A stretch of 64,000 bases of DNA, from NCBI GenBank assembly GCA_051866635.1, contig JBJDXJ010000049.1:31163-95162 (forward strand), in the 5' to 3' direction. Of the stretch, positions 2,546 to 11,479 are shown piece after piece. How positions within the stretch are numbered: position 1 is the stretch's first letter; each line of letters opens with the position of its first letter. A program made the position numbers and the translations under genes. Source of the DNA: Clostridia bacterium (GTDB lineage Bacteria; Bacillota; Clostridia; UMGS1883). The notes beneath the pieces were generated by a model. That model saw only the letters and a program-made list of their open reading frames with translations. It searched no databases and had not been told where the DNA came from.

Positions 2546-3214
2546 TTGACATATATAAAATTTGTATGTGATGCAATCGAAAATATAAATATTGGGAAAC
2601 CTATTTATACAAAAGATATAGCAAAAAAAATGGCAGATAATTATTGCATGCAAGAAAAAGACGCTGCTCTTGCAACATCTGTTGCTTTTAAAAGGATTAT
2701 AGATACTAATATAGTACCTCAATTAAGATATTATCAAAAAGGAATTTATTACAAAGTGACCGCTACACCGTTTGGAGAAACAAAAATAAATAAAGAGCAG
2801 CTTATAGCAGATAAATATATACTCCCCGATAGGGGCTACGAAACAGGTCTTTCACTTATGCATCAAATGGGTTTAACAACGCAAATTCCAAAAGAGAGAA
2901 CAATAGCAACAAATGCTGCAAAGGATTGTGCAAGAGCCGATAAAAAGCTTGGGGTGATAATTAAGCCGCCCAAGGTGAAAATTACAAAGAAAAACAAAGA
3001 TTATTTGCAGATACTTGATGTGTTGGAGCTGATTGATAAAGCACCTGTTGACGACCGGCAGACATATATAACTATAGCGAATCAAATAGAAAAAAGAAAT
3101 CTGCAATACGGTGAATTACTTGCCTTTGCAAATAACTATTATAATAAAAAGACAATATTAAATCTTGCAAATACAGCAAGTGCCGGAGGTGTGCATAATG
3201 AAACTGCATTTTGA
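2546..3214 (+). CDS. Type IV TA antitoxin (AbiEi/DUF6088-like)
   Basis: KGIYY and GYETGLSLMHQMGLTTQIP motifs; overlaps the downstream nucleotidyltransferase; own TTGACA...TATAAT promoter near 2461-2490. Confidence 0.75.
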   Translation: MTYIKFVCDAIENINIGKPIYTKDIAKKMADNYCMQEKDAALATSVAFKRIIDTNIVPQLRYYQKGIYYKVTATPFGETKINKEQLIADKYILPDRGYETGLSLMHQMGLTTQIPKERTIATNAAKDCARADKKLGVIIKPPKVKITKKNKDYLQILDVLELIDKAPVDDRQTYITIANQIEKRNLQYGELLAFANNYYNKKTILNLANTASAGGVHNETAF

Positions 3215-4178
3215 CAGAAATGCCTTTGCCGTAATTTTAAATACAATACATGAAAGAACCGGTTACAGAACAGATGTACTGGAAAAAGATTATTATGTCG
3301 TATTGGTGTTAAAGGAACTGTCGGAATTCCAAAAGAACGGATTGCCGGCTTATTTCAAGGGCGGAACTGCACTATATAAAGCCCTGAAAACAACAAATAG
3401 ATTTTCCGAGGACATTGATTTGTCTGTTGACACTCGCAATTGCACACGCAGTCAAAATGATAAAAGACTTGAAAAAGCAACAAAAAGGTACACTGTATTA
3501 CAAAGAGTCTGTGATGAAGGCAGAACCAATCGCTCAGAAATTATATCTGTATATAAGTACGAGCCTGTGACCGTCTACGATGCTAACGATAGCTTACAGA
3601 GGTTTGGCAAATTGAAAATAGAAGCTACTTCCTTTACTATAAGCGAGCCCGTTTCTTCGTTGAAAGTATCTGCCATGATATACAATTTGGCAACAGATGA
3701 AGAAAAGGAAATACTTGAATCAGTCTATGATGTAAAGCCTTTTTCAGTGATGACTATTACTCTTGAAAGGATTTTTGTGGATAAATTATTTGCCGCAGAG
3801 TCATATATAAGAACCTCGGATAAGGCAAACCGTGCTTTTGAAGCGGCAAAGCATATTTATGACTTATCGGTTTTGGAGAAACATCCTCAAATTATTTCTT
3901 TACTGCAAGACGAGGAACAGTTAGAAAGATTGCTTGAAATACGTATTAAAGAAGAACAAAATCGATTGGACGGTGTTCCAAATCTTTTACCGAAAGATTT
4001 TATATTTTTTACGAATGCTGAGGGAAATGTCGCTGTCCGAAAAGCTTATGAAATCATGCAAAGTCAATATGTAATGAGGGATTGTGATAAAATTGATTTT
4101 ACACTGGCAACAGAAAGCATTAAAAATATTTATAACCGTTTACTGTTAAATCCTGCATGGAATAAATGCAATATATGA
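3198..4178 (+). CDS. AbiEii/AbiGii-family nucleotidyltransferase toxin
   Basis: EKDY, FKGGTALYK, RFSEDIDL, KHIYDL motifs. Confidence 0.88.
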   Translation: MKLHFDRNAFAVILNTIHERTGYRTDVLEKDYYVVLVLKELSEFQKNGLPAYFKGGTALYKALKTTNRFSEDIDLSVDTRNCTRSQNDKRLEKATKRYTVLQRVCDEGRTNRSEIISVYKYEPVTVYDANDSLQRFGKLKIEATSFTISEPVSSLKVSAMIYNLATDEEKEILESVYDVKPFSVMTITLERIFVDKLFAAESYIRTSDKANRAFEAAKHIYDLSVLEKHPQIISLLQDEEQLERLLEIRIKEEQNRLDGVPNLLPKDFIFFTNAEGNVAVRKAYEIMQSQYVMRDCDKIDFTLATESIKNIYNRLLLNPAWNKCNI

Positions 4179-4188
4179 AAATAAATGA

Positions 4189-4227
4189 GGAGTACACCTT
4201 ACTAATTCAAAGGTGTACTCCTTTTTT
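4189..4227 (+). terminator. Intrinsic terminator after the AbiE pair
   Basis: GGAGTACACCTT...AAGGTGTACTCC hairpin followed by a T tract. Confidence 0.8.
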
Positions 4228-4355
4228 ACGTTATAGGAAATTCCTCATTTCTTATTCTGTCTGACTTAGCTAAGCTATTGTCAAAAGCGAGGAGACACTT
4301 TGTTTTTTTAATACTTTACAGCCCATGTGGTAAAATATTAAAAAGGAGTGGTTGT

Positions 4356-5225
4356 ATGACTATAAACTGCGGCATAATAGCCGAATTTAAAAATTACCTT
4401 ATGGAAGAGGAGAAGTCCTTTTCAACAGTGGACAAGTATGTCCGAGATGTAAATAAATTTGCACAAAAGATAGGAGATGAAGAAATCACAAAAGCTAAAC
4501 TTTTAGAATATAAAACAGCTCTGTGCAAAAGCTATGCCCCCTCCAGCGTCAATGGAGCAATATCATCCCTAAACGCCTTTTTCGATTTTGTGCAATGCCC
4601 CAATTTGAAATTAAAGTCTGTAAAAATCCAGCGGAAAATATTTATGAGCAAAGAAAAGGAGCTTTCAAAAAAGGAGTACGAAAGGCTTGTCCGCACCGCA
4701 AAAGAAAAGAAAAACAAACGCCTCTTTTACCTTATGCAAACTATATGTTCCACAGGTATACGGGTTTCCGAACTAAGGTTTGTAACGGTGGGGGCTGTTA
4801 AATCGGGAGAAGTGCAAATAAACCTGAAAGGCAAAATACGCTGTATTTTACTGCCCGGCAGTCTTATAAAAATGTTAAAACAATATATAAAGGAAGAAAA
4901 AATTAAAAAAGGCCCCGTTTTTGTAACAAAAAACGGAAAGCCATTGGATAGGAGCAATATATGGCACGATATGAAAAACCTTTGCACACAGGCAGGGGTG
5001 GATAGCAGAAAAGTGTTCCCCCACAATTTAAGGCATCTGTTTGCCCGTGCCTTTTATTCAATCCAAAAAGACATTGTCCGTCTGGCAGATATTTTAGGTC
5101 ATTCAAGCATAAATACAACACGCATTTACACCATGGAAACAGGCGACATTCACTTAAAACAGATAGAAAAACTGGGGCTTGTTTGTTTTATAGGAAATTA
5201 TAAAGAAAATAAAAATACCACATAA
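4356..5225 (+). CDS. Tyrosine recombinase (XerC/D-like), candidate invertase
   Basis: Catalytic motifs TGIRVSEL, HNLRH, LGHSS, TRIY; RBS AAGGAG before ATG 4356. Confidence 0.92.
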   Translation: MTINCGIIAEFKNYLMEEEKSFSTVDKYVRDVNKFAQKIGDEEITKAKLLEYKTALCKSYAPSSVNGAISSLNAFFDFVQCPNLKLKSVKIQRKIFMSKEKELSKKEYERLVRTAKEKKNKRLFYLMQTICSTGIRVSELRFVTVGAVKSGEVQINLKGKIRCILLPGSLIKMLKQYIKEEKIKKGPVFVTKNGKPLDRSNIWHDMKNLCTQAGVDSRKVFPHNLRHLFARAFYSIQKDIVRLADILGHSSINTTRIYTMETGDIHLKQIEKLGLVCFIGNYKENKNTT

Positions 5226-5240
5226 TCTACATTATGTGGT
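5214..5240 (+). repeat. Left inverted repeat / recombination site AATACCACATAA-TCTACA-TTATGTGGT
   Basis: Exact reverse complement of 5531-5557; palindromic arms around a 6-bp asymmetric core; overlaps the recombinase stop codon. Confidence 0.93.
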
Positions 5241-5271
5241 GAACCAAAATTACATATAGCCTTTGAAGTTA

Positions 5272-5300
5272 ATTATAGCAGTTAATTTACCCATTGTCAA
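5272..5300 (-). promoter_or_regulatory. Consensus sigmaA promoter inside the invertible segment
   Basis: Minus strand TTGACA (5300-5295), 17-bp spacer, extended -10 TGcTATAAT (hexamer 5277-5272). Confidence 0.9.
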
Positions 5301-5327
5301 GAGTTTTTTACTAATTTTGCATATGGC

Positions 5328-5358
5328 AAAAAGACCAATGGAAGCATTGGTCCTTTTG
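5328..5358. terminator. Probable bidirectional terminator within the invertible segment
   Basis: AAAAAGACCAATG-GAAG-CATTGGTCCTTTT. Confidence 0.7.
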
Positions 5359-5530
5359 TGTTGCGTTTTTTGTGCACTCAATTAAGTTTTATCAGGTAAT
5401 TGCAACGTTTTTTAAGGTACAGGGACACTCCCGGTCATTCATTTGGGGTGCTTTGGTGAAAAATTAGAACAGCACTTGGCTTTGGGTCGGGGGTGTCCCG
5501 TGTGGTGGGCTTTAGTGAGACAGCTTTAAT

Positions 5531-5557
5531 ACCACATAATGTAGATTATGTGGTATT
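5531..5557 (-). repeat. Right inverted repeat / recombination site ACCACATAA-TGTAGA-TTATGTGGTATT
   Basis: Exact reverse complement of 5214-5240. Confidence 0.93.
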
Positions 5558-5560
5558 GAC

Positions 5561-5608
5561 CACCTCATCAGCCGCCCTGCGGCGACAGCTTCCCCTCAAG
5601 GGGAAGCC
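5561..5608. repeat. REP-like double hairpin
   Basis: GCCGCCCTGCGGC and GCTTCCCCTCAAGGGGAAGC hairpins; resembles clostridial intergenic REP-like repeats. Confidence 0.55.
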
Positions 5609-5626
5609 TGTGAGGCTTTTTTACAG

Positions 5627-5762
5627 ACAATTTCCTCCAATGAAATTGTACACGCATGGGGAGGAGCGTTTACCACATTAGCTGCTCCCCTTCGACTGCG
5701 TGGTTTCGTTGGTATGTTAATATATAAACAGGTACGGATTTAACCGTACAAAAAACGCATTT
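5627..5762 (+). repeat. Structured leader element, copy 1
   Basis: Near-identical to 5981-6122; stems ACAATTTC/GAAATTGT, CACGCA/TGCGTG, GGAGC/GCTCC, GTACGG/CCGTAC. Confidence 0.85.
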
Positions 5763-5980
5763 CGTGCCATTTTAAAGGGAAAAACAGAAACACGGCACTT
5801 TTAAAAAAAAGATGCCGTGTTTTTTCCGACCTTTTTAAAAAAAAGATGTCGTTTTACTGCCTTGACTTTAAAATTAAATAATAGCAAAATAAAAAATAGC
5901 GATAAATATGCTGATGAATACAGATTACACCAATAATTATTGTTTCATCCATATGCATATTTTTTGCCAACAAAATTACT

Positions 5981-6122
5981 ACAATTTCCTCCAATGAAGT
6001 TGTACACGCATGGGGAGGAGCGCTTACCACATTAGCTGCTCCCCTTTGACCGCGTGTTTTTGTTGGCAGATTAAATTAATATATAAATAGGTACGGATTT
6101 AACCGTACTAAAAAAAGCATTT
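5981..6122 (+). repeat. Structured leader element, copy 2
   Basis: Direct repeat of 5627-5762; has an additional enclosing stem GCCAACAAAA/TTTTGTTGGC. Confidence 0.85.
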
Positions 6123-6259
6123 AATTTTTTTATATAAATTTAATTTGGAAATGAAAGCGTCACAAATTCCTGAGGTCGACAGGAAAGGCGATTGATTTTC
6201 CATTTCTGTGCGGCGTTGCCGCAAATAAAAAATATAAAAAATAATGGAGGAAATTAGTA

Positions 6260-9200
6260 ATGAAACTTAAAAGATTTTTAGCCATTGTAATTTCCCTTGC
6301 AATGGTACTTTCTATTGTGCCGGCGTTTAGCTTAACAGCAAGCGCGGCGGATATAACAGATGCCGCCCTTCTTGCCTATGCTACAAGCAGCACAACGGCT
6401 TTGTTTGACGCCACAAACCCCGCTCCCACCGCGGTAAGTGATACTGCAATTGCAACCGCTTGGCCCGAATCCGGCTGGTCGGGAACTATTAATAACGGTT
6501 ACCTTAATGTCAATGCGGGCCCCAGAATTCAGTGCTACATCGGCTCGTATACAAACGGCGGTCAGGCTGCGAACTTTGTAAACTTGGGCTCCGGCTACGG
6601 CTCCGGCAACGACTGGGTGCTTCTCAGATTTACTGCCGAGTACACATGTGCATGGGGCGACCTTGCTCTTTATGATATTGACGGCAATATCCTTACAGCG
6701 GTTCGTTACGGTACAGGCGACTCTAACTGCTTTGCTCCTTCCTGGGGTCATTCAGGTTGGGGTACACCCTACAGCTTTTCTAACTATACACTTTCCGCAG
6801 AAGGTGTTGTAGCTAACCTTACAAGCGGTTCTTCTTTGATTGATATTCTTCTTCGAAACTACGATCCCGACGGAACAGCTTCAAGCGGCGACGAATACTA
6901 CACAGCTACATTCTTTGTTAACGGTACATCTGTCTGCGTAGGTACATACACAGGTCTCGGTAACTTTAACGGCCTTGGCAAAATCGGCATGAGCCGTGGT
7001 TCAGGTAATTCTTGGGAGCGTATTTCCATGAAGACTCCCCTTGTTTATGCAGGCGACTATCCTGCAACTTCTGATGCTTCAACTATTGCGGCAGCTCTTA
7101 GCGCTCTTTCTGTTCCTGCTCTTACAAAGGGCGTGGATATAACACTTCCTGCTACGGCAACAGACTCTATGGGTACAACTGTGGACGTTACATGGACATC
7201 TTCCAATACAAGTGTTATTTCAAACACAGGTGTTGTAACAGCTCCCGCGGCACTTACAGAAGTTACACTTACACCTTCTGCAACATTTGAAGAGGCAACC
7301 GTTACAGGCTCAGCAAAAAAAGTAACCGTGTTCCCTGCATCTTATGCAAAAGATAGTATGTATGGGTACTATAAAATCGGCGACAAGGTTGATACATCAA
7401 GCATCAGCTGGTATCACCGTCAGACAACAGACGGCAGCGTTGGTGTAGATGGATTGACAACAACTACCGAAAACGGTGTAACATATTACACATTCCCTGC
7501 ACTGGGAGGTGTTGGCGGTACTAACGCAAGAACATCCATAGGTATTACGGCAGGTAACAGCTACCTTGTTCGTTTCTACTATGGCGGTACTGCTTTAGGC
7601 AACGGCGCCGGAAACACATACAATAAGGTATATACAACAGCCGGTGCTTATAATGATGAAGTAGCTTTAGACTATGTTTCAGGTACAGCAAGTACAGGTA
7701 TTACAACCACTGCCAATGTATGGACAGAAATACAGACAGTATTTACAGCTTCCGAAGGCGCAAACTTCCTTACATTTGTATACAGCTGGCTTGATGCAGG
7801 ATTAAAGATTGCAGATGTTGAGCTTTACAATGTTACCGATTTGTCAAAGACTGTTACTTTAAATATCTTAGACGTGGATGGTAACACCGTTAAAACACTT
7901 GAGGAGAGGTGTATATCAGGCGGAAGTGTTACATTTGAGGCACAGAGCTTTGCATCTAACGGTATATTCTACACTACCGAAGAGAAGACATACGAAAATG
8001 TAACAGAAGATGCTACATATACAATTTTTGCAACAGCTGACGCAAGTAAATATGCTTCTGTTGAAAGTTATACATGGAACTACACCACAGGGGCAGATAT
8101 TTCATCTACGCTTACAAAGGGTAATATCTCCGGTCTTTCCGACACTCTTATGACAATTAACTGGGGCAACACAAGACAGGGTATTATTAACTTTAATGTT
8201 CCCATAACAAGCGGCCAGCAGCTTGCTTCCGCAACGCTTACCCTTCGTCTCGGTGGTCAGCAGGGTGATTCTGTCGGTTTTGATGTGTATGCAATGCCCA
8301 AATCAAAATCACCCAAGGTGGCAGCAGCTCCCGATTCAGCTGCAGGCGTAAAGGTAGGTTCATACTCCGGCTCATACTCCGGCGAAGCACAGGACGCTGT
8401 AATAGAAGTTCCCCTTACATTCTCTGACTATGTTGACACCTCCGAAGGCCTTACATTAAGGCTTGCGGCAAATAGCCAGATGGGTGTGTATTGGGGTGCA
8501 AACCAGGGCGAAAGAGCACCTTTCCTTTCCAATATTACAATGGGCGAAATTACAGCAACAGCCGTTACGGTTAACTGTGTAGACACAAACAGTACGCTTC
8601 TTCAGACAGGTACTCAGTATCATACAAGCTTTTACGGATATAACAGTGAATTGATTTACCCCGAATTGGAAATCCCCACAATCGACGGTTATATCTTCAA
8701 GAGCAAGAGCGTATCCGGCACTACGGTAACGCTTAAATATGCCCAAGATACACAGGACGACTACTTCTTTGACAATATTACAAATATGAACACAAGGTTC
8801 ATATCTCTTAATATGCTCGGTGCACATAACGCTTTCACCAGCGAAATGACAGACAAGTCAGATGCTGCTGCACTTAAGCAGGAAAATTCAATGGGCGGTG
8901 CTTACGGCGGTGCATTAGCTCCCAATACGGCGCTCCCCAGAAGTAAGGCACAGGACAAAGATACGCTTGAAATGCTCCGTGCAGGTGCCCGTTACTTTGA
9001 TATTCGTGTTTCCCGTTCCGAATCAAACAGCTCATATTTAGGTGTATCGGCAAAGCATACAAACGGCGTAATGTACACAACACACGCGCTCCTTGGCGGC
9101 GAGTTAAGACCCATTCTTTATACAATCGCTCAGTGGGCAGAAACTCACCCCGGCGAAATTATTGTTCTTGACTTCCAGGAATTTTATGATTACAATTCCG

Positions 9201-11479
9201 GATATGACGGAAACTCTACGGCACAGTCATGGAGAGATCTTGATACCCTCCTTACACAGACAGGTGTTAATAACTATGTAACAATCGGCAATCAGTCCCT
9301 TAAAAATGTTACATACGGCGATCTTACCTCAAACGGCACAAAGGCAGGCATAGTTCTGTTCGGTCGTGCAACAGCAACAAACTCAAGTGTCGGCAAGTTC
9401 ATCCTTCGCGGTACACTTAACAACGCATTTGAAGGTAAGGCATATTCAAACTATGACAAGAGCGGAACAAGTATAGGTTCAAGCTACAGTGCAGCCTATA
9501 TCCAGGCTCAGGTTGACCATATGGACCAGTATCAGTCTGTAACAGGCGACTCAACCGGCGACAACATTATTTACTGGATGTTCAGAATAATGCAGGGTCA
9601 GAGCGAAGGAAGCAACCTTGTTACTCAGGGTGCAAGCGATAACACAAGCCTTTACAACGGTATTGTTGCTAATCCCTCTTGGCTTACAGCACTTCCTGTT
9701 GTAATGGTTAACACTGTGGGTACAAACACAGACAATATCGTTACACTTCTTAAAGAATGTAATGTGCCCACAGAAACAGTTAACTATGTTTATAACGGAA
9801 CAGTGGTTAAATCAGTTCCCAATGCTGCACTTGTCGGCACACTTTACACAAACGACGGCTTCTATGATGAACCTGTCTACAAGCTTATGGCAGGCACAGA
9901 CGGCGAATACTACGTTTCCGAAACCTTCTACACAGCTCCTTCCGCAGGCACAGTTACAAAGGTTGTAAAGGGCAGTGCAGTAGAAGTTGACGTTACAAAG
10001 CTCGGCAATGTTTACTCATCACGAGGCGGTAAGCTTTACGCAGATAAGCTTACAGATGACGGTGCCTACACAGGTAAGGACAGCTTTGCTGCCTTCAACT
10101 GGGGCACTACTCCTGCAGACAGAATAGGTGTAGCGGTTCTCAGTGCAGAAACAGGCAGAAGTGCATATATGCTTTCCGCAACAGAGGTAAGAAAGTACTT
10201 TAACACCTCTGCCGGTGCAACAAAGTTCTATGCAATCCCGGCTGCAACATACCGTTCACTTGACCTTTATAATGCAAGCGAAGTTATCTCCTATATGACA
10301 GATGCTAACCTTGTTGCTACCATAAGCCACGGCAACTGCGGCGATACAAGTGTAGGTACAGCTGAAATTATACTTGACACAGATAAAATTTCTGCAATTG
10401 CAGCAAGCGGTGACGTTGTAATTTTAGGTGACAGCGTAAACGGTCTTTACGGCTTAAAGAACGATATAAGTATTGTTTCTTGCTACGTTGTTGAAAGCAC
10501 AACAGAAGGTGCTACAACTACAACAGTTGTTAAACCCGGCGGCACATACACACTTGGCACGGCTAAAGTTTATGAAGATGGAGATAATAAACTTTATGCA
10601 CCCGAAAGCAATGTAACTGTAACCGGTGATATGACATTTAACGGATATAATACTTTAGGTGCAAACGTTGTTAACGGTGCACAGGTACGTATTGGCGACG
10701 GTGTTGATAAAGACGGCAAGATTTCCACAGGCAGCGGTCTCAGATTTATCACAACGGTTAACGCAGTCGATACAATTGCCGGTCTTACAAATATTACAGA
10801 AATAGGTGTTCGTATTACGGCTGAAGGCAACAGTGCATACAAAGATATTGTTACAACAGACTGGCAGACAGAAGACCACTCGGTATTCACATCTGCTCTC
10901 ACAAACCTTGAAGTAACAAACTACAACCGTAAATTCACAGCTACTCCTTATGTTAAGTATACTGATACAGCAACAGGCGATGAAGTAGTGGTTCTCGGTT
11001 CTACTGAAACTACAAGAAGTATCTATCAGGTAGCCGCAGGTCTCCTTGCAAACGGTTACACAACAGATAACGGTACAGGAAGTGACCCCGAAGACCATAC
11101 AGGTGAAATGCCCGAAGTACTTGTAAAGGTTCTTAACGCATATGTAAACCAGACAGGTATCCGTCTTACACTTGCAGACAGCACACTTACAGCACGTACA
11201 ACAGGCTCAGGTAGCTACACAGGCGACGCATTCTTTGAAGTAAGCGGTGCAACTACAGGAACTGATGAAGAAGGTAATACAACATATACATGTGTACTTA
11301 CACCTGTAGGCAGTGCAAAGATCAATACAAATTACTGGAACGAATATGTAAGAATTAACAACAACAATAAAGCAATTGCCGGATATGTAGAACTCGCAGA
11401 CAACGGCAACAATACATATACACTTACATTTAAGTACGGTAAATATAGTGTAGACAAAGCAGCAGCTTCTGCTGAATAA
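6260..11479 (+). CDS. Large secreted/surface multidomain protein with Ig-like and PI-PLC X-like domains
   Basis: Signal peptide ending TASA; Ig-like LPAT...VTWTSSNTSVISNTGVVT; PI-PLC motifs LGAHNA, LRAGARYFDIRV, HPGEIIVLDF; GGAGG RBS. Confidence 0.8.
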   Translation: MKLKRFLAIVISLAMVLSIVPAFSLTASAADITDAALLAYATSSTTALFDATNPAPTAVSDTAIATAWPESGWSGTINNGYLNVNAGPRIQCYIGSYTNGGQAANFVNLGSGYGSGNDWVLLRFTAEYTCAWGDLALYDIDGNILTAVRYGTGDSNCFAPSWGHSGWGTPYSFSNYTLSAEGVVANLTSGSSLIDILLRNYDPDGTASSGDEYYTATFFVNGTSVCVGTYTGLGNFNGLGKIGMSRGSGNSWERISMKTPLVYAGDYPATSDASTIAAALSALSVPALTKGVDITLPATATDSMGTTVDVTWTSSNTSVISNTGVVTAPAALTEVTLTPSATFEEATVTGSAKKVTVFPASYAKDSMYGYYKIGDKVDTSSISWYHRQTTDGSVGVDGLTTTTENGVTYYTFPALGGVGGTNARTSIGITAGNSYLVRFYYGGTALGNGAGNTYNKVYTTAGAYNDEVALDYVSGTASTGITTTANVWTEIQTVFTASEGANFLTFVYSWLDAGLKIADVELYNVTDLSKTVTLNILDVDGNTVKTLEERCISGGSVTFEAQSFASNGIFYTTEEKTYENVTEDATYTIFATADASKYASVESYTWNYTTGADISSTLTKGNISGLSDTLMTINWGNTRQGIINFNVPITSGQQLASATLTLRLGGQQGDSVGFDVYAMPKSKSPKVAAAPDSAAGVKVGSYSGSYSGEAQDAVIEVPLTFSDYVDTSEGLTLRLAANSQMGVYWGANQGERAPFLSNITMGEITATAVTVNCVDTNSTLLQTGTQYHTSFYGYNSELIYPELEIPTIDGYIFKSKSVSGTTVTLKYAQDTQDDYFFDNITNMNTRFISLNMLGAHNAFTSEMTDKSDAAALKQENSMGGAYGGALAPNTALPRSKAQDKDTLEMLRAGARYFDIRVSRSESNSSYLGVSAKHTNGVMYTTHALLGGELRPILYTIAQWAETHPGEIIVLDFQEFYDYNSGYDGNSTAQSWRDLDTLLTQTGVNNYVTIGNQSLKNVTYGDLTSNGTKAGIVLFGRATATNSSVGKFILRGTLNNAFEGKAYSNYDKSGTSIGSSYSAAYIQAQVDHMDQYQSVTGDSTGDNIIYWMFRIMQGQSEGSNLVTQGASDNTSLYNGIVANPSWLTALPVVMVNTVGTNTDNIVTLLKECNVPTETVNYVYNGTVVKSVPNAALVGTLYTNDGFYDEPVYKLMAGTDGEYYVSETFYTAPSAGTVTKVVKGSAVEVDVTKLGNVYSSRGGKLYADKLTDDGAYTGKDSFAAFNWGTTPADRIGVAVLSAETGRSAYMLSATEVRKYFNTSAGATKFYAIPAATYRSLDLYNASEVISYMTDANLVATISHGNCGDTSVGTAEIILDTDKISAIAASGDVVILGDSVNGLYGLKNDISIVSCYVVESTTEGATTTTVVKPGGTYTLGTAKVYEDGDNKLYAPESNVTVTGDMTFNGYNTLGANVVNGAQVRIGDGVDKDGKISTGSGLRFITTVNAVDTIAGLTNITEIGVRITAEGNSAYKDIVTTDWQTEDHSVFTSALTNLEVTNYNRKFTATPYVKYTDTATGDEVVVLGSTETTRSIYQVAAGLLANGYTTDNGTGSDPEDHTGEMPEVLVKVLNAYVNQTGIRLTLADSTLTARTTGSGSYTGDAFFEVSGATTGTDEEGNTTYTCVLTPVGSAKINTNYWNEYVRINNNNKAIAGYVELADNGNNTYTLTFKYGKYSVDKAAASAE

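Follow-up and report, generated by a model that had tools for sequence, protein, structure and literature searches.

A probable dif-like promoter switch beside its own Xer-like tyrosine recombinase in an uncultured gut Clostridia genome

The DNA considered here is a stretch of 64,000 nucleotides from an uncultured gut Clostridia bacterium (the window; assembly GCA_051866635.1, contig JBJDXJ010000049.1, positions 31,163 to 95,162), in which, at 4356–5557, a gene for a tyrosine recombinase is followed by a short non-coding segment enclosed between inverted repeats and carrying a promoter that points outward. We put at roughly 80% the probability that this locus is a fim-type phase-variation switch, OFF as sequenced, which upon inversion would aim its promoter at the gene of a 1739-aa secreted protein located downstream. 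The reading is carried by the anatomy of the locus, the intact catalytic residues of the recombinase, the conservation of the module throughout its family, and the presence of both orientations among its orthologs and paralogs.

As in fim-type invertons, two inverted sites surround a short non-coding segment. The left site (IR-L, 5214–5240) and the right site (IR-R, 5531–5557), neither assigned to a strand, were recovered by a repeat search as 27-nt arms, 100% complementary and 290 nt apart; with both sites included, the whole flippable segment measures 344 bases. Each site presents symmetric arms around a centre that reads TCTACA on the left and TGTAGA on the right, where just two of the six bases are asymmetric, and the right site is a near-palindrome over 30 nt. 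Because the asymmetric centres face each other, recombination between them should invert the 290-bp interior and not delete it. A 24-nt core pattern allowing up to three mismatches detected only these two sites in the window (0 of 100 shuffles matched) and the same two alone in the whole genome of 2,329,367 bases and 63 contigs, with no hits for a control pattern. A metagenome scan with the 24-nt site returned 0 stretches.

Within the segment, a sigma-70-type consensus promoter with an extended -10 lies on the minus strand (5272–5300; TTGACA at 5300–5295, a 17-nt spacer, and TATAAT at 5277–5272 preceded by TG), matching the consensus at 12 of 12 positions plus the TG. It stands 31 nt away from IR-L and is oriented leftward across it, that is, outward over one site and toward the recombinase, in the OFF state. 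Promoter-like matches are no more abundant between 4100 and 6400 than chance would provide (5 found, versus 7.1 ± 2.4 expected from shuffles); the one inside the switch is the sole perfect match, the other four scoring 9/12. Behind the promoter, a hairpin at 5333–5352 (no strand; -17 to -18 kcal/mol on both strands), flanked by a U-run on either side, has the form of a two-way terminator or insulator. The third element is an A-tract directly before the left site (5199–5213, no strand), with 10 A in its last 12 bases. On the minus strand, the 10-bp hairpin formed by IR-L is thus followed by a U-run originating from the A-tract, and 5240–5217 was scored as terminator-like; no U-run follows IR-R.

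The recombinase gene (4356–5225, plus strand) encodes 289 aa and ends inside IR-L, providing the nearby site-specific recombinase that is typical of fim-type invertons. Its product is an Xer-like tyrosine recombinase, which we take as the invertase of the switch. The Phage_integrase domain (PF00589) is matched at 2.7e-26 with 92.8 bits, against a cut-off of 27.1, placing the protein within that superfamily, and the SAM-like N-terminal domain Phage_int_SAM_1 is matched at 1.9e-07; the best relative of solved structure is an archaeal XerC-like protein (PDB 4a8e, 5.7e-22). The reading frame is intact. In an alignment of 18 family members, residues R136, K160, H223, R226, H249 and Y258 are invariant, and from the standard motif positions we presume these to be the catalytic ones. 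The stop codon (TAA, 5223–5225) sits within the left site because of an 11-residue C-terminal extension, which among the 18 aligned proteins is found only in the window recombinase and its closest relative (P0003, 84% identical); for the majority of relatives, the stop codon comes about 20 nt ahead of the site. Together these results confirm the anatomy as first described in a sequence-only reading of the locus, which had reported exact 27-bp reverse complements (here also found to be unique in the genome) with palindromic arms around an asymmetric 6-bp core, a perfect minus-strand TTGACA-N17-TGcTATAAT promoter with a terminator behind it, and an adjacent tyrosine recombinase of its own whose stop codon is overlapped by the left site.

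That reading had also called the sites dif-like, and the label turns out to be literally right. Seventeen consecutive bases of the window site are identical to the dif site of Sodalis glossinidius, in the same 11-6-11 register, and 16 of 17 are identical to that of Escherichia coli K12, both as printed in the available part of PMC2731167; the inner arm bases CATAA and TTATG, described there as the best-conserved part of dif, are present as well. The question arises whether these are simply Xer/dif sites, serving dimer resolution or the integration and excision of a mobile element with no inversion involved. The 11-6-11 layout, the 17 bases in common with a printed dif site and the resemblance of the recombinase to XerA, XerC and XerD speak for it, yet the recombinase scores far below the curated NCBIfam equivalog cut-offs (XerA 139.6 vs 220, XerD 125.4 vs 329.6, XerC 111 vs 335), which makes it Xer-like but not a member of any of the three. 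Against it also stand the two sites with opposed centres only 290 bp apart, enclosing just a promoter and a terminator; the eight such sites of the genome, arranged in four pairs, each beside its own recombinase; and the different orientations found between orthologs with collinear flanks. We therefore give this explanation next to no credence. A dif site proper, single on its replicon, was likewise rejected given these eight sites in four inverted pairs with dedicated recombinases. A further difference from Xer/dif is that the window arms are exact reverse complements, which implies a single recombinase species acting on all four half-sites, with the direction set only by the centre.

The module is shared by a large family. 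We assembled 38 loci with recombinase homologs: 19 and 13 from relatives, two from a scan of genome contigs with the recombinase (which gave these two only, one of them distant at 24%), and the four copies of the genome itself. The 13 come from 16 further relative matches, L025, L029 and L037 having been dropped for want of a full-length recombinase match. In 30 of the 38 loci the gene is directly followed by an exact repeat pair, 18–28 nt long and enclosing 156–315 nt, and an imperfect pair in L026 raises the loci with repeats to 31. In all 30, one strand carries a clearly better promoter, directed outward and 17–70 nt (mostly 25–39) from one site; 21 point toward the recombinase and nine away from it, the calls for L023 and for one of the genome's own copies (on contig C35) being based on weak promoters. 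The flanking signals are conserved too. Behind the promoter, 60–100 nt past the -35, 25 of the 30 loci have a hairpin of 7 bp or more, and its stem starts with GACC(A/G) in 21 of those 25, with matching changes in both arms. The 12 bases before IR-L contain on average 7.9 A, versus 3.5 T in the 12 bases after IR-R. None of the 30 loci has a palindromic centre, a count that is uninformative because about two would be expected by chance.

At the protein level, the family comprises at least 7,997 clusters at 90% identity (7,997 of 7,998 scored candidates at E ≤ 1e-30). Among the matches listed, the sources are named Clostridia, Oscillospiraceae or Ruminococcaceae bacterium and the proteins only integrase, recombinase or tyrosine-type recombinase/integrase; the closest named member among them, from Anaerotruncus massiliensis (Oscillospiraceae, 49% identity), has its own repeat pair. 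As a separate observation, some contigs of the relatives end at or near a switch of this family: those of L025 (G001:C179, 1289 nt), L007 (G008:C341), L035 (G008:C42) and L020 (G012:C67). Contig ends at such places are a typical assembler outcome at segments of mixed orientation, and the same genomes are also simply fragmented.

The genome itself provides paralogs. A tblastn search with the recombinase revealed four copies, the window's included (100, 64, 61 and 50% identity) and, more remotely related, two others at 24%. All four directly precede their own exact inverted-repeat pair, enclosing 192–290 nt, and the four pairs have common arms, ACATAAT and ATTATGT (with one base differing in C35), each around a different 4-nt centre. 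The best promoter aims at the recombinase in three of the modules: the window's, the one on contig C31 (34450–34718, OFF), which precedes a C39-peptidase ABC exporter and an HlyD-type protein, and the one on C35 (6316–6555, OFF), which precedes a DUF6625 protein. In the fourth, on C38 (76437–76707, ON), the promoter lies next to the right site and aims at a 2565-aa secreted Ig-like protein with a signal peptide.

Both orientations are thus seen among paralogs, and the same holds for orthologs. In four orthologous pairs from sister species in opposite states, the inner segment is more alike when one copy is reversed while the flanks are collinear: 0.88 reversed against 0.59 forward for L033 and L011, 0.68 against 0.51 for L040 and L010, 0.76 against 0.59 for L021 and L034, and 0.60 against 0.19 for L039 and L032, with the 300 nt after the right site matching forward at 0.77, 0.77, 0.73 and 0.54, respectively. 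A control pair in the same state (L006 and L004) gave the opposite result, 0.62 reversed against 0.98 forward, with 0.94 after the right site. A fifth pair in opposite states, the genome's own C38 copy and L030, is too diverged to show a direction, at 0.57 reversed versus 0.53 forward. Mapped onto a phylogeny of the 30 recombinases, the switch state changes seven times, and 332 of 1000 label shuffles need seven changes or fewer; the state is therefore not structured by phylogeny, which fits frequent flipping. The window's own ortholog in a congener (G004) is ON, with the promoter beside the right site and aimed at the orthologous secreted-protein gene. At the DNA level the two loci are 69% identical in the recombinase and 70% at the start of the secreted-protein gene, and they carry the same leader element (described below). 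The comparison supports both the earlier claim of inversion between opposed sites, through reversed inner segments within collinear flanks, and the earlier interpretation of the locus as a phase-variation switch in the OFF state, with its promoter firing toward the recombinase.

Mechanistically, a single Xer-like recombinase species most likely binds both of the symmetric-armed, dif-like sites, and we infer that it flips the segment between them. In the OFF state the promoter would fire toward the end of the recombinase gene, where the transcript would meet the IR-L hairpin and its U-run and probably stop within about 50 nt; the internal two-way terminator, in turn, would stop read-through from the recombinase gene. 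After inversion, the promoter would be found at about 5471–5499, with a start at about 5506, some 755 nt before the ATG at 6260. Transcription in this ON state would cross IR-R, which it should be able to pass because no U-run follows the right site, and proceed through a leader of about 755 nt into the 1739-aa gene. The insulating roles proposed here for the A-tract, the hairpin and the U-run-free right site are deduced from the letters and from their conservation, as is the arrival of ON transcripts at the gene.

The presumed target (6260–11479, plus strand) encodes a protein of 1739 aa with a signal-peptide-like N-terminus and an Ig-like domain (aBig_2, 4.2e-06). Residues 894–1095 form a weak PI-PLC-like stretch, with E values of 0.003–0.009 to several PDB chains. 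The sequence-only reading had spoken of a surface-protein locus; no cell-wall anchor motif was seen at the C-terminus, and because of this, secreted is the safer word. NCBIfam has no family for this protein (P0001), which shows no similarity to the C38 target protein past the signal peptide, and a search of the ESM Atlas gave no usable match.

Between the switch and this gene, the leader carries two copies of an element on the plus strand, each with two conserved hairpins and then a small palindrome, at 5627–5755 and 5981–6114 (repeats D1 and D2, 90% and 95% in the second copy). The two-hairpin part is found at 5622–5712 and 5976–6066 in the window and, on the minus strand, at 636–726 of L025 and 1380–1470 of L026. 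Of its 23 predicted pairs, six, in the second stem, differ at both positions when the window copies are compared with the congeners; the 13-nt loop is conserved. The element was found in just five of 64 family genomes, each time downstream of a switch of the same recombinase family. An Rfam search over 4000–6500 at E values up to 1 returned four matches, all under gathering scores and none on the leader elements; one of them, at 5506–5575, merely covers the palindromic right site. The element may be a new small leader RNA, represented by only four full sequences from two lineages.

Several observations weigh against the interpretation of the locus as an invertible ON/OFF switch. To begin with the family, eight of the 38 loci lack an exact repeat: three end within 500 nt of the gene, one is the imperfect L026, one is L024 at 24% identity, and three are unexplained. 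Second, in the assembled Logan contigs of three runs from one study (one DNA run with 0.13 of the words; no RNA run was listed), no joint changes strand, which is uninformative about inversion, and only the window's state appears; one related contig of run X1 has the same right junction as the window. Third, a second congener, G001, shares the window's state. Finally, the states of G001 and G004 are called from the position of the promoter, because their inner segments have diverged too far: local alignment of the window's interior scored 28 forward and 31 reversed against G004, and 39 and 37 against G001 (null maxima 27 and 28), and the interiors of G001 and G004 do not align above the null.

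A frozen relic, in which the sites and the promoter are inherited and this copy no longer inverts, would account for the window and G001 sharing one state. Such a relic would not be expected to keep two sites identical at 27 of 27 bases beside a recombinase with an open frame and all six catalytic residues, nor does it fit with the congener ortholog in G004 being in the other state, and we hold it to be very improbable.

The leader raises a different difficulty, also to be counted against the switch. Between the two leader-element copies lies a strong hairpin followed by a U-run (5787–5826, plus strand; -22.1 kcal/mol, z -5.2), terminator-like in form, which none of 200 shuffles folded as well as and which the initial terminator scan had missed. 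It may weaken or attenuate the ON output, and the target gene may use another, weak promoter-like site downstream of it (5862–5890, 9/12). The segment could then flip without simply turning the 1739-aa gene ON and OFF: ON transcripts would end at 5787–5826, and expression of the gene would depend on a downstream promoter or on an antitermination factor acting on the leader hairpins. The duplication of the leader element around the hairpin and the promoter-like site that follows it agree with this arrangement, as does the G004 ortholog, whose leader has a single element and no evident terminator-like hairpin. On the other side, the only perfect promoter between 4100 and 6400 lies in the switch, weak promoter-like matches are no commoner there than in shuffles, and the order of module and then gene is kept in congeners; taken globally, this alternative appears unlikely, and a phase-variation switch aimed at the 1739-aa gene remains our preferred interpretation.

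A broader view of the module, which we offer only tentatively and do not expect to hold in full, is that of a self-insulated, domesticated single-Xer/dif cassette in which both states have been actively shaped. The combination of site and A-tract terminator would silence the OFF promoter and shield the recombinase gene from antisense transcription. Since the recombinase mRNA would end within the invertible segment, its 3' end would depend on the state of the switch, and this could produce an orientational control like that of fimE, with the bias toward OFF seen in 21 of the 30 loci. Different centres are expected to block crossover between switches for tyrosine recombinases; if they do so here, the different 4-nt centres could allow the four switches of the genome to coexist independently. 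The genus-specific structured leader RNA would add a second layer of control, after initiation.

A classical parallel is fimS of E. coli, an invertible element of about 300 bp with an outward promoter that is flipped by the tyrosine recombinases FimB and FimE, encoded directly upstream; it has short repeats, two recombinases of different directional bias, and a need for accessory DNA-bending proteins. Both there and in the window, transcription of the recombinase gene continues into the invertible element, whereas the window has 27-nt symmetric dif-like sites, one recombinase and no identified accessory sites. Within the Clostridia, the Clostridioides difficile recombinase RecV acts on the flagellar switch, and multiple sequences of that genome invert (flgB, cwpV and pdcB among the RecV switches), likewise by tyrosine-recombinase inversion upstream of surface or motility genes, according to the available parts of PMC7446863 and PMC9286219. 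The window genome differs from C. difficile, as far as those parts describe it, in that a separate, adjacent recombinase accompanies each of its four switches and a consensus promoter lies in the interior. The Mpi/Tsr invertible promoters of Bacteroides, in the accounts available in part, are similar in being promoter inversions of gut commensals tied to surface structures, some with adjacent tyrosine recombinases, and different in phylum, repeat motifs and promoter type.

The nearest catalogued counterparts are inverton group 139 and the tyrosine invertase group 35 linked to it, found in cultured human-gut Clostridia by the PhaseFinderDC survey of the hCom2 community (PMC11892184, available in part). 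Group 139 has 33 invertons, 32 of them from Clostridia and nearly all with a nearby tyrosine recombinase, and read-supported shifts of orientation are reported for Clostridium sp. D5 and Intestinimonas butyriciproducens. The window agrees with the group in its short segment, in its host class, Clostridia, and in a tyrosine recombinase gene within 5 kb (same strand, upstream) whose orientation puts it beyond regulation by the promoter. The printed examples measure 26 and 14 nt in the repeats and 205 and 227 nt in the interior, similar to the 27 and 290 nt here. Judged by dimensions, neighbour and host class, the window switch likely belongs to this group. Neither the dif-like anatomy nor the A-tract terminator nor the internal hairpin appears in the available part of the survey; the DeepInverton paper (PMC11602134), in its available part, makes no mention of Clostridia or of this switch family, and among the papers listed by a full-text search combining the arm 9-mers with inversion none was relevant.

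In this context, the locus is well supported as a switch, yet ordinary within a family that surveys of gut Clostridia have already catalogued, and the result is confirmatory and not surprising. New here are the set of four modules in one small genome, the conservation of the putative A-tract terminator and of the insulating hairpin, the likeness to dif, and the genus-restricted structured leader. Within just 2.3 Mb, this genome has four promoter switches of a single family, apparently independent of one another, whose presumed targets are two very large secreted proteins, a bacteriocin-type or peptide exporter and a DUF6625 protein. The conserved combination of dif-like site, A-tract, outward promoter and insulating hairpin constitutes a precise signature by which such switches can be found in sequence, with no need of reads. 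With at least 7,997 clusters in the family, and names that go no further than integrase or recombinase, this type of phase variation is probably very common and under-annotated in gut Firmicutes.

Two repeats are associated with the segment. The first, a dispersed element of about 140 nt at 5378–5519 (no strand), lies inside it and explains why the 290-nt interior is longer than those of most relatives. It matches many separate places in congeneric genomes at 71–89% identity and has partial copies on contigs C42 and C19 of its own genome; its fold is not better than that of shuffles. The second, a GC-rich hairpin repeat element of 70 nt (5556–5625, no strand), lies just outside IR-R and is replaced in a related contig of run X1, which joins 5555 to 5626 with 14 other letters between them. 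Its core (5561–5609) recurs many times in related genomes at 84–92% identity, and numerous contigs from three gut runs cover the element at a high summed depth. In appearance it is a small mobile or REP-like element.

Upstream of the recombinase, a weak promoter-like site on the plus strand (4308–4336, TTAATA-17-TAAAAT with TG; 9/12, at chance level) precedes the ribosome-binding site and the ATG at 4356. Overlapping its -10 is a 16-nt motif that resembles a recombinase half-site (4319–4334) and returns, reverse-complemented, in both leader hairpin loops (5669–5684 and 6024–6038). A family-wide autoregulatory half-site was considered for this motif and rejected, arm-like hexamers being present in the 160 nt upstream of only three of the 30 loci; half-site-like hexamers near the recombinase promoter are a trait of the window alone, not conserved in the 29 other family loci. 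Directly upstream of the recombinase lies a gene for an AbiEii-type nucleotidyltransferase toxin (3165–4178, Pfam 5.3e-21), overlapped and preceded by a 222-aa open reading frame with no Pfam match; the two (2546–4178) probably form an AbiE-type toxin-antitoxin or abortive-infection pair.

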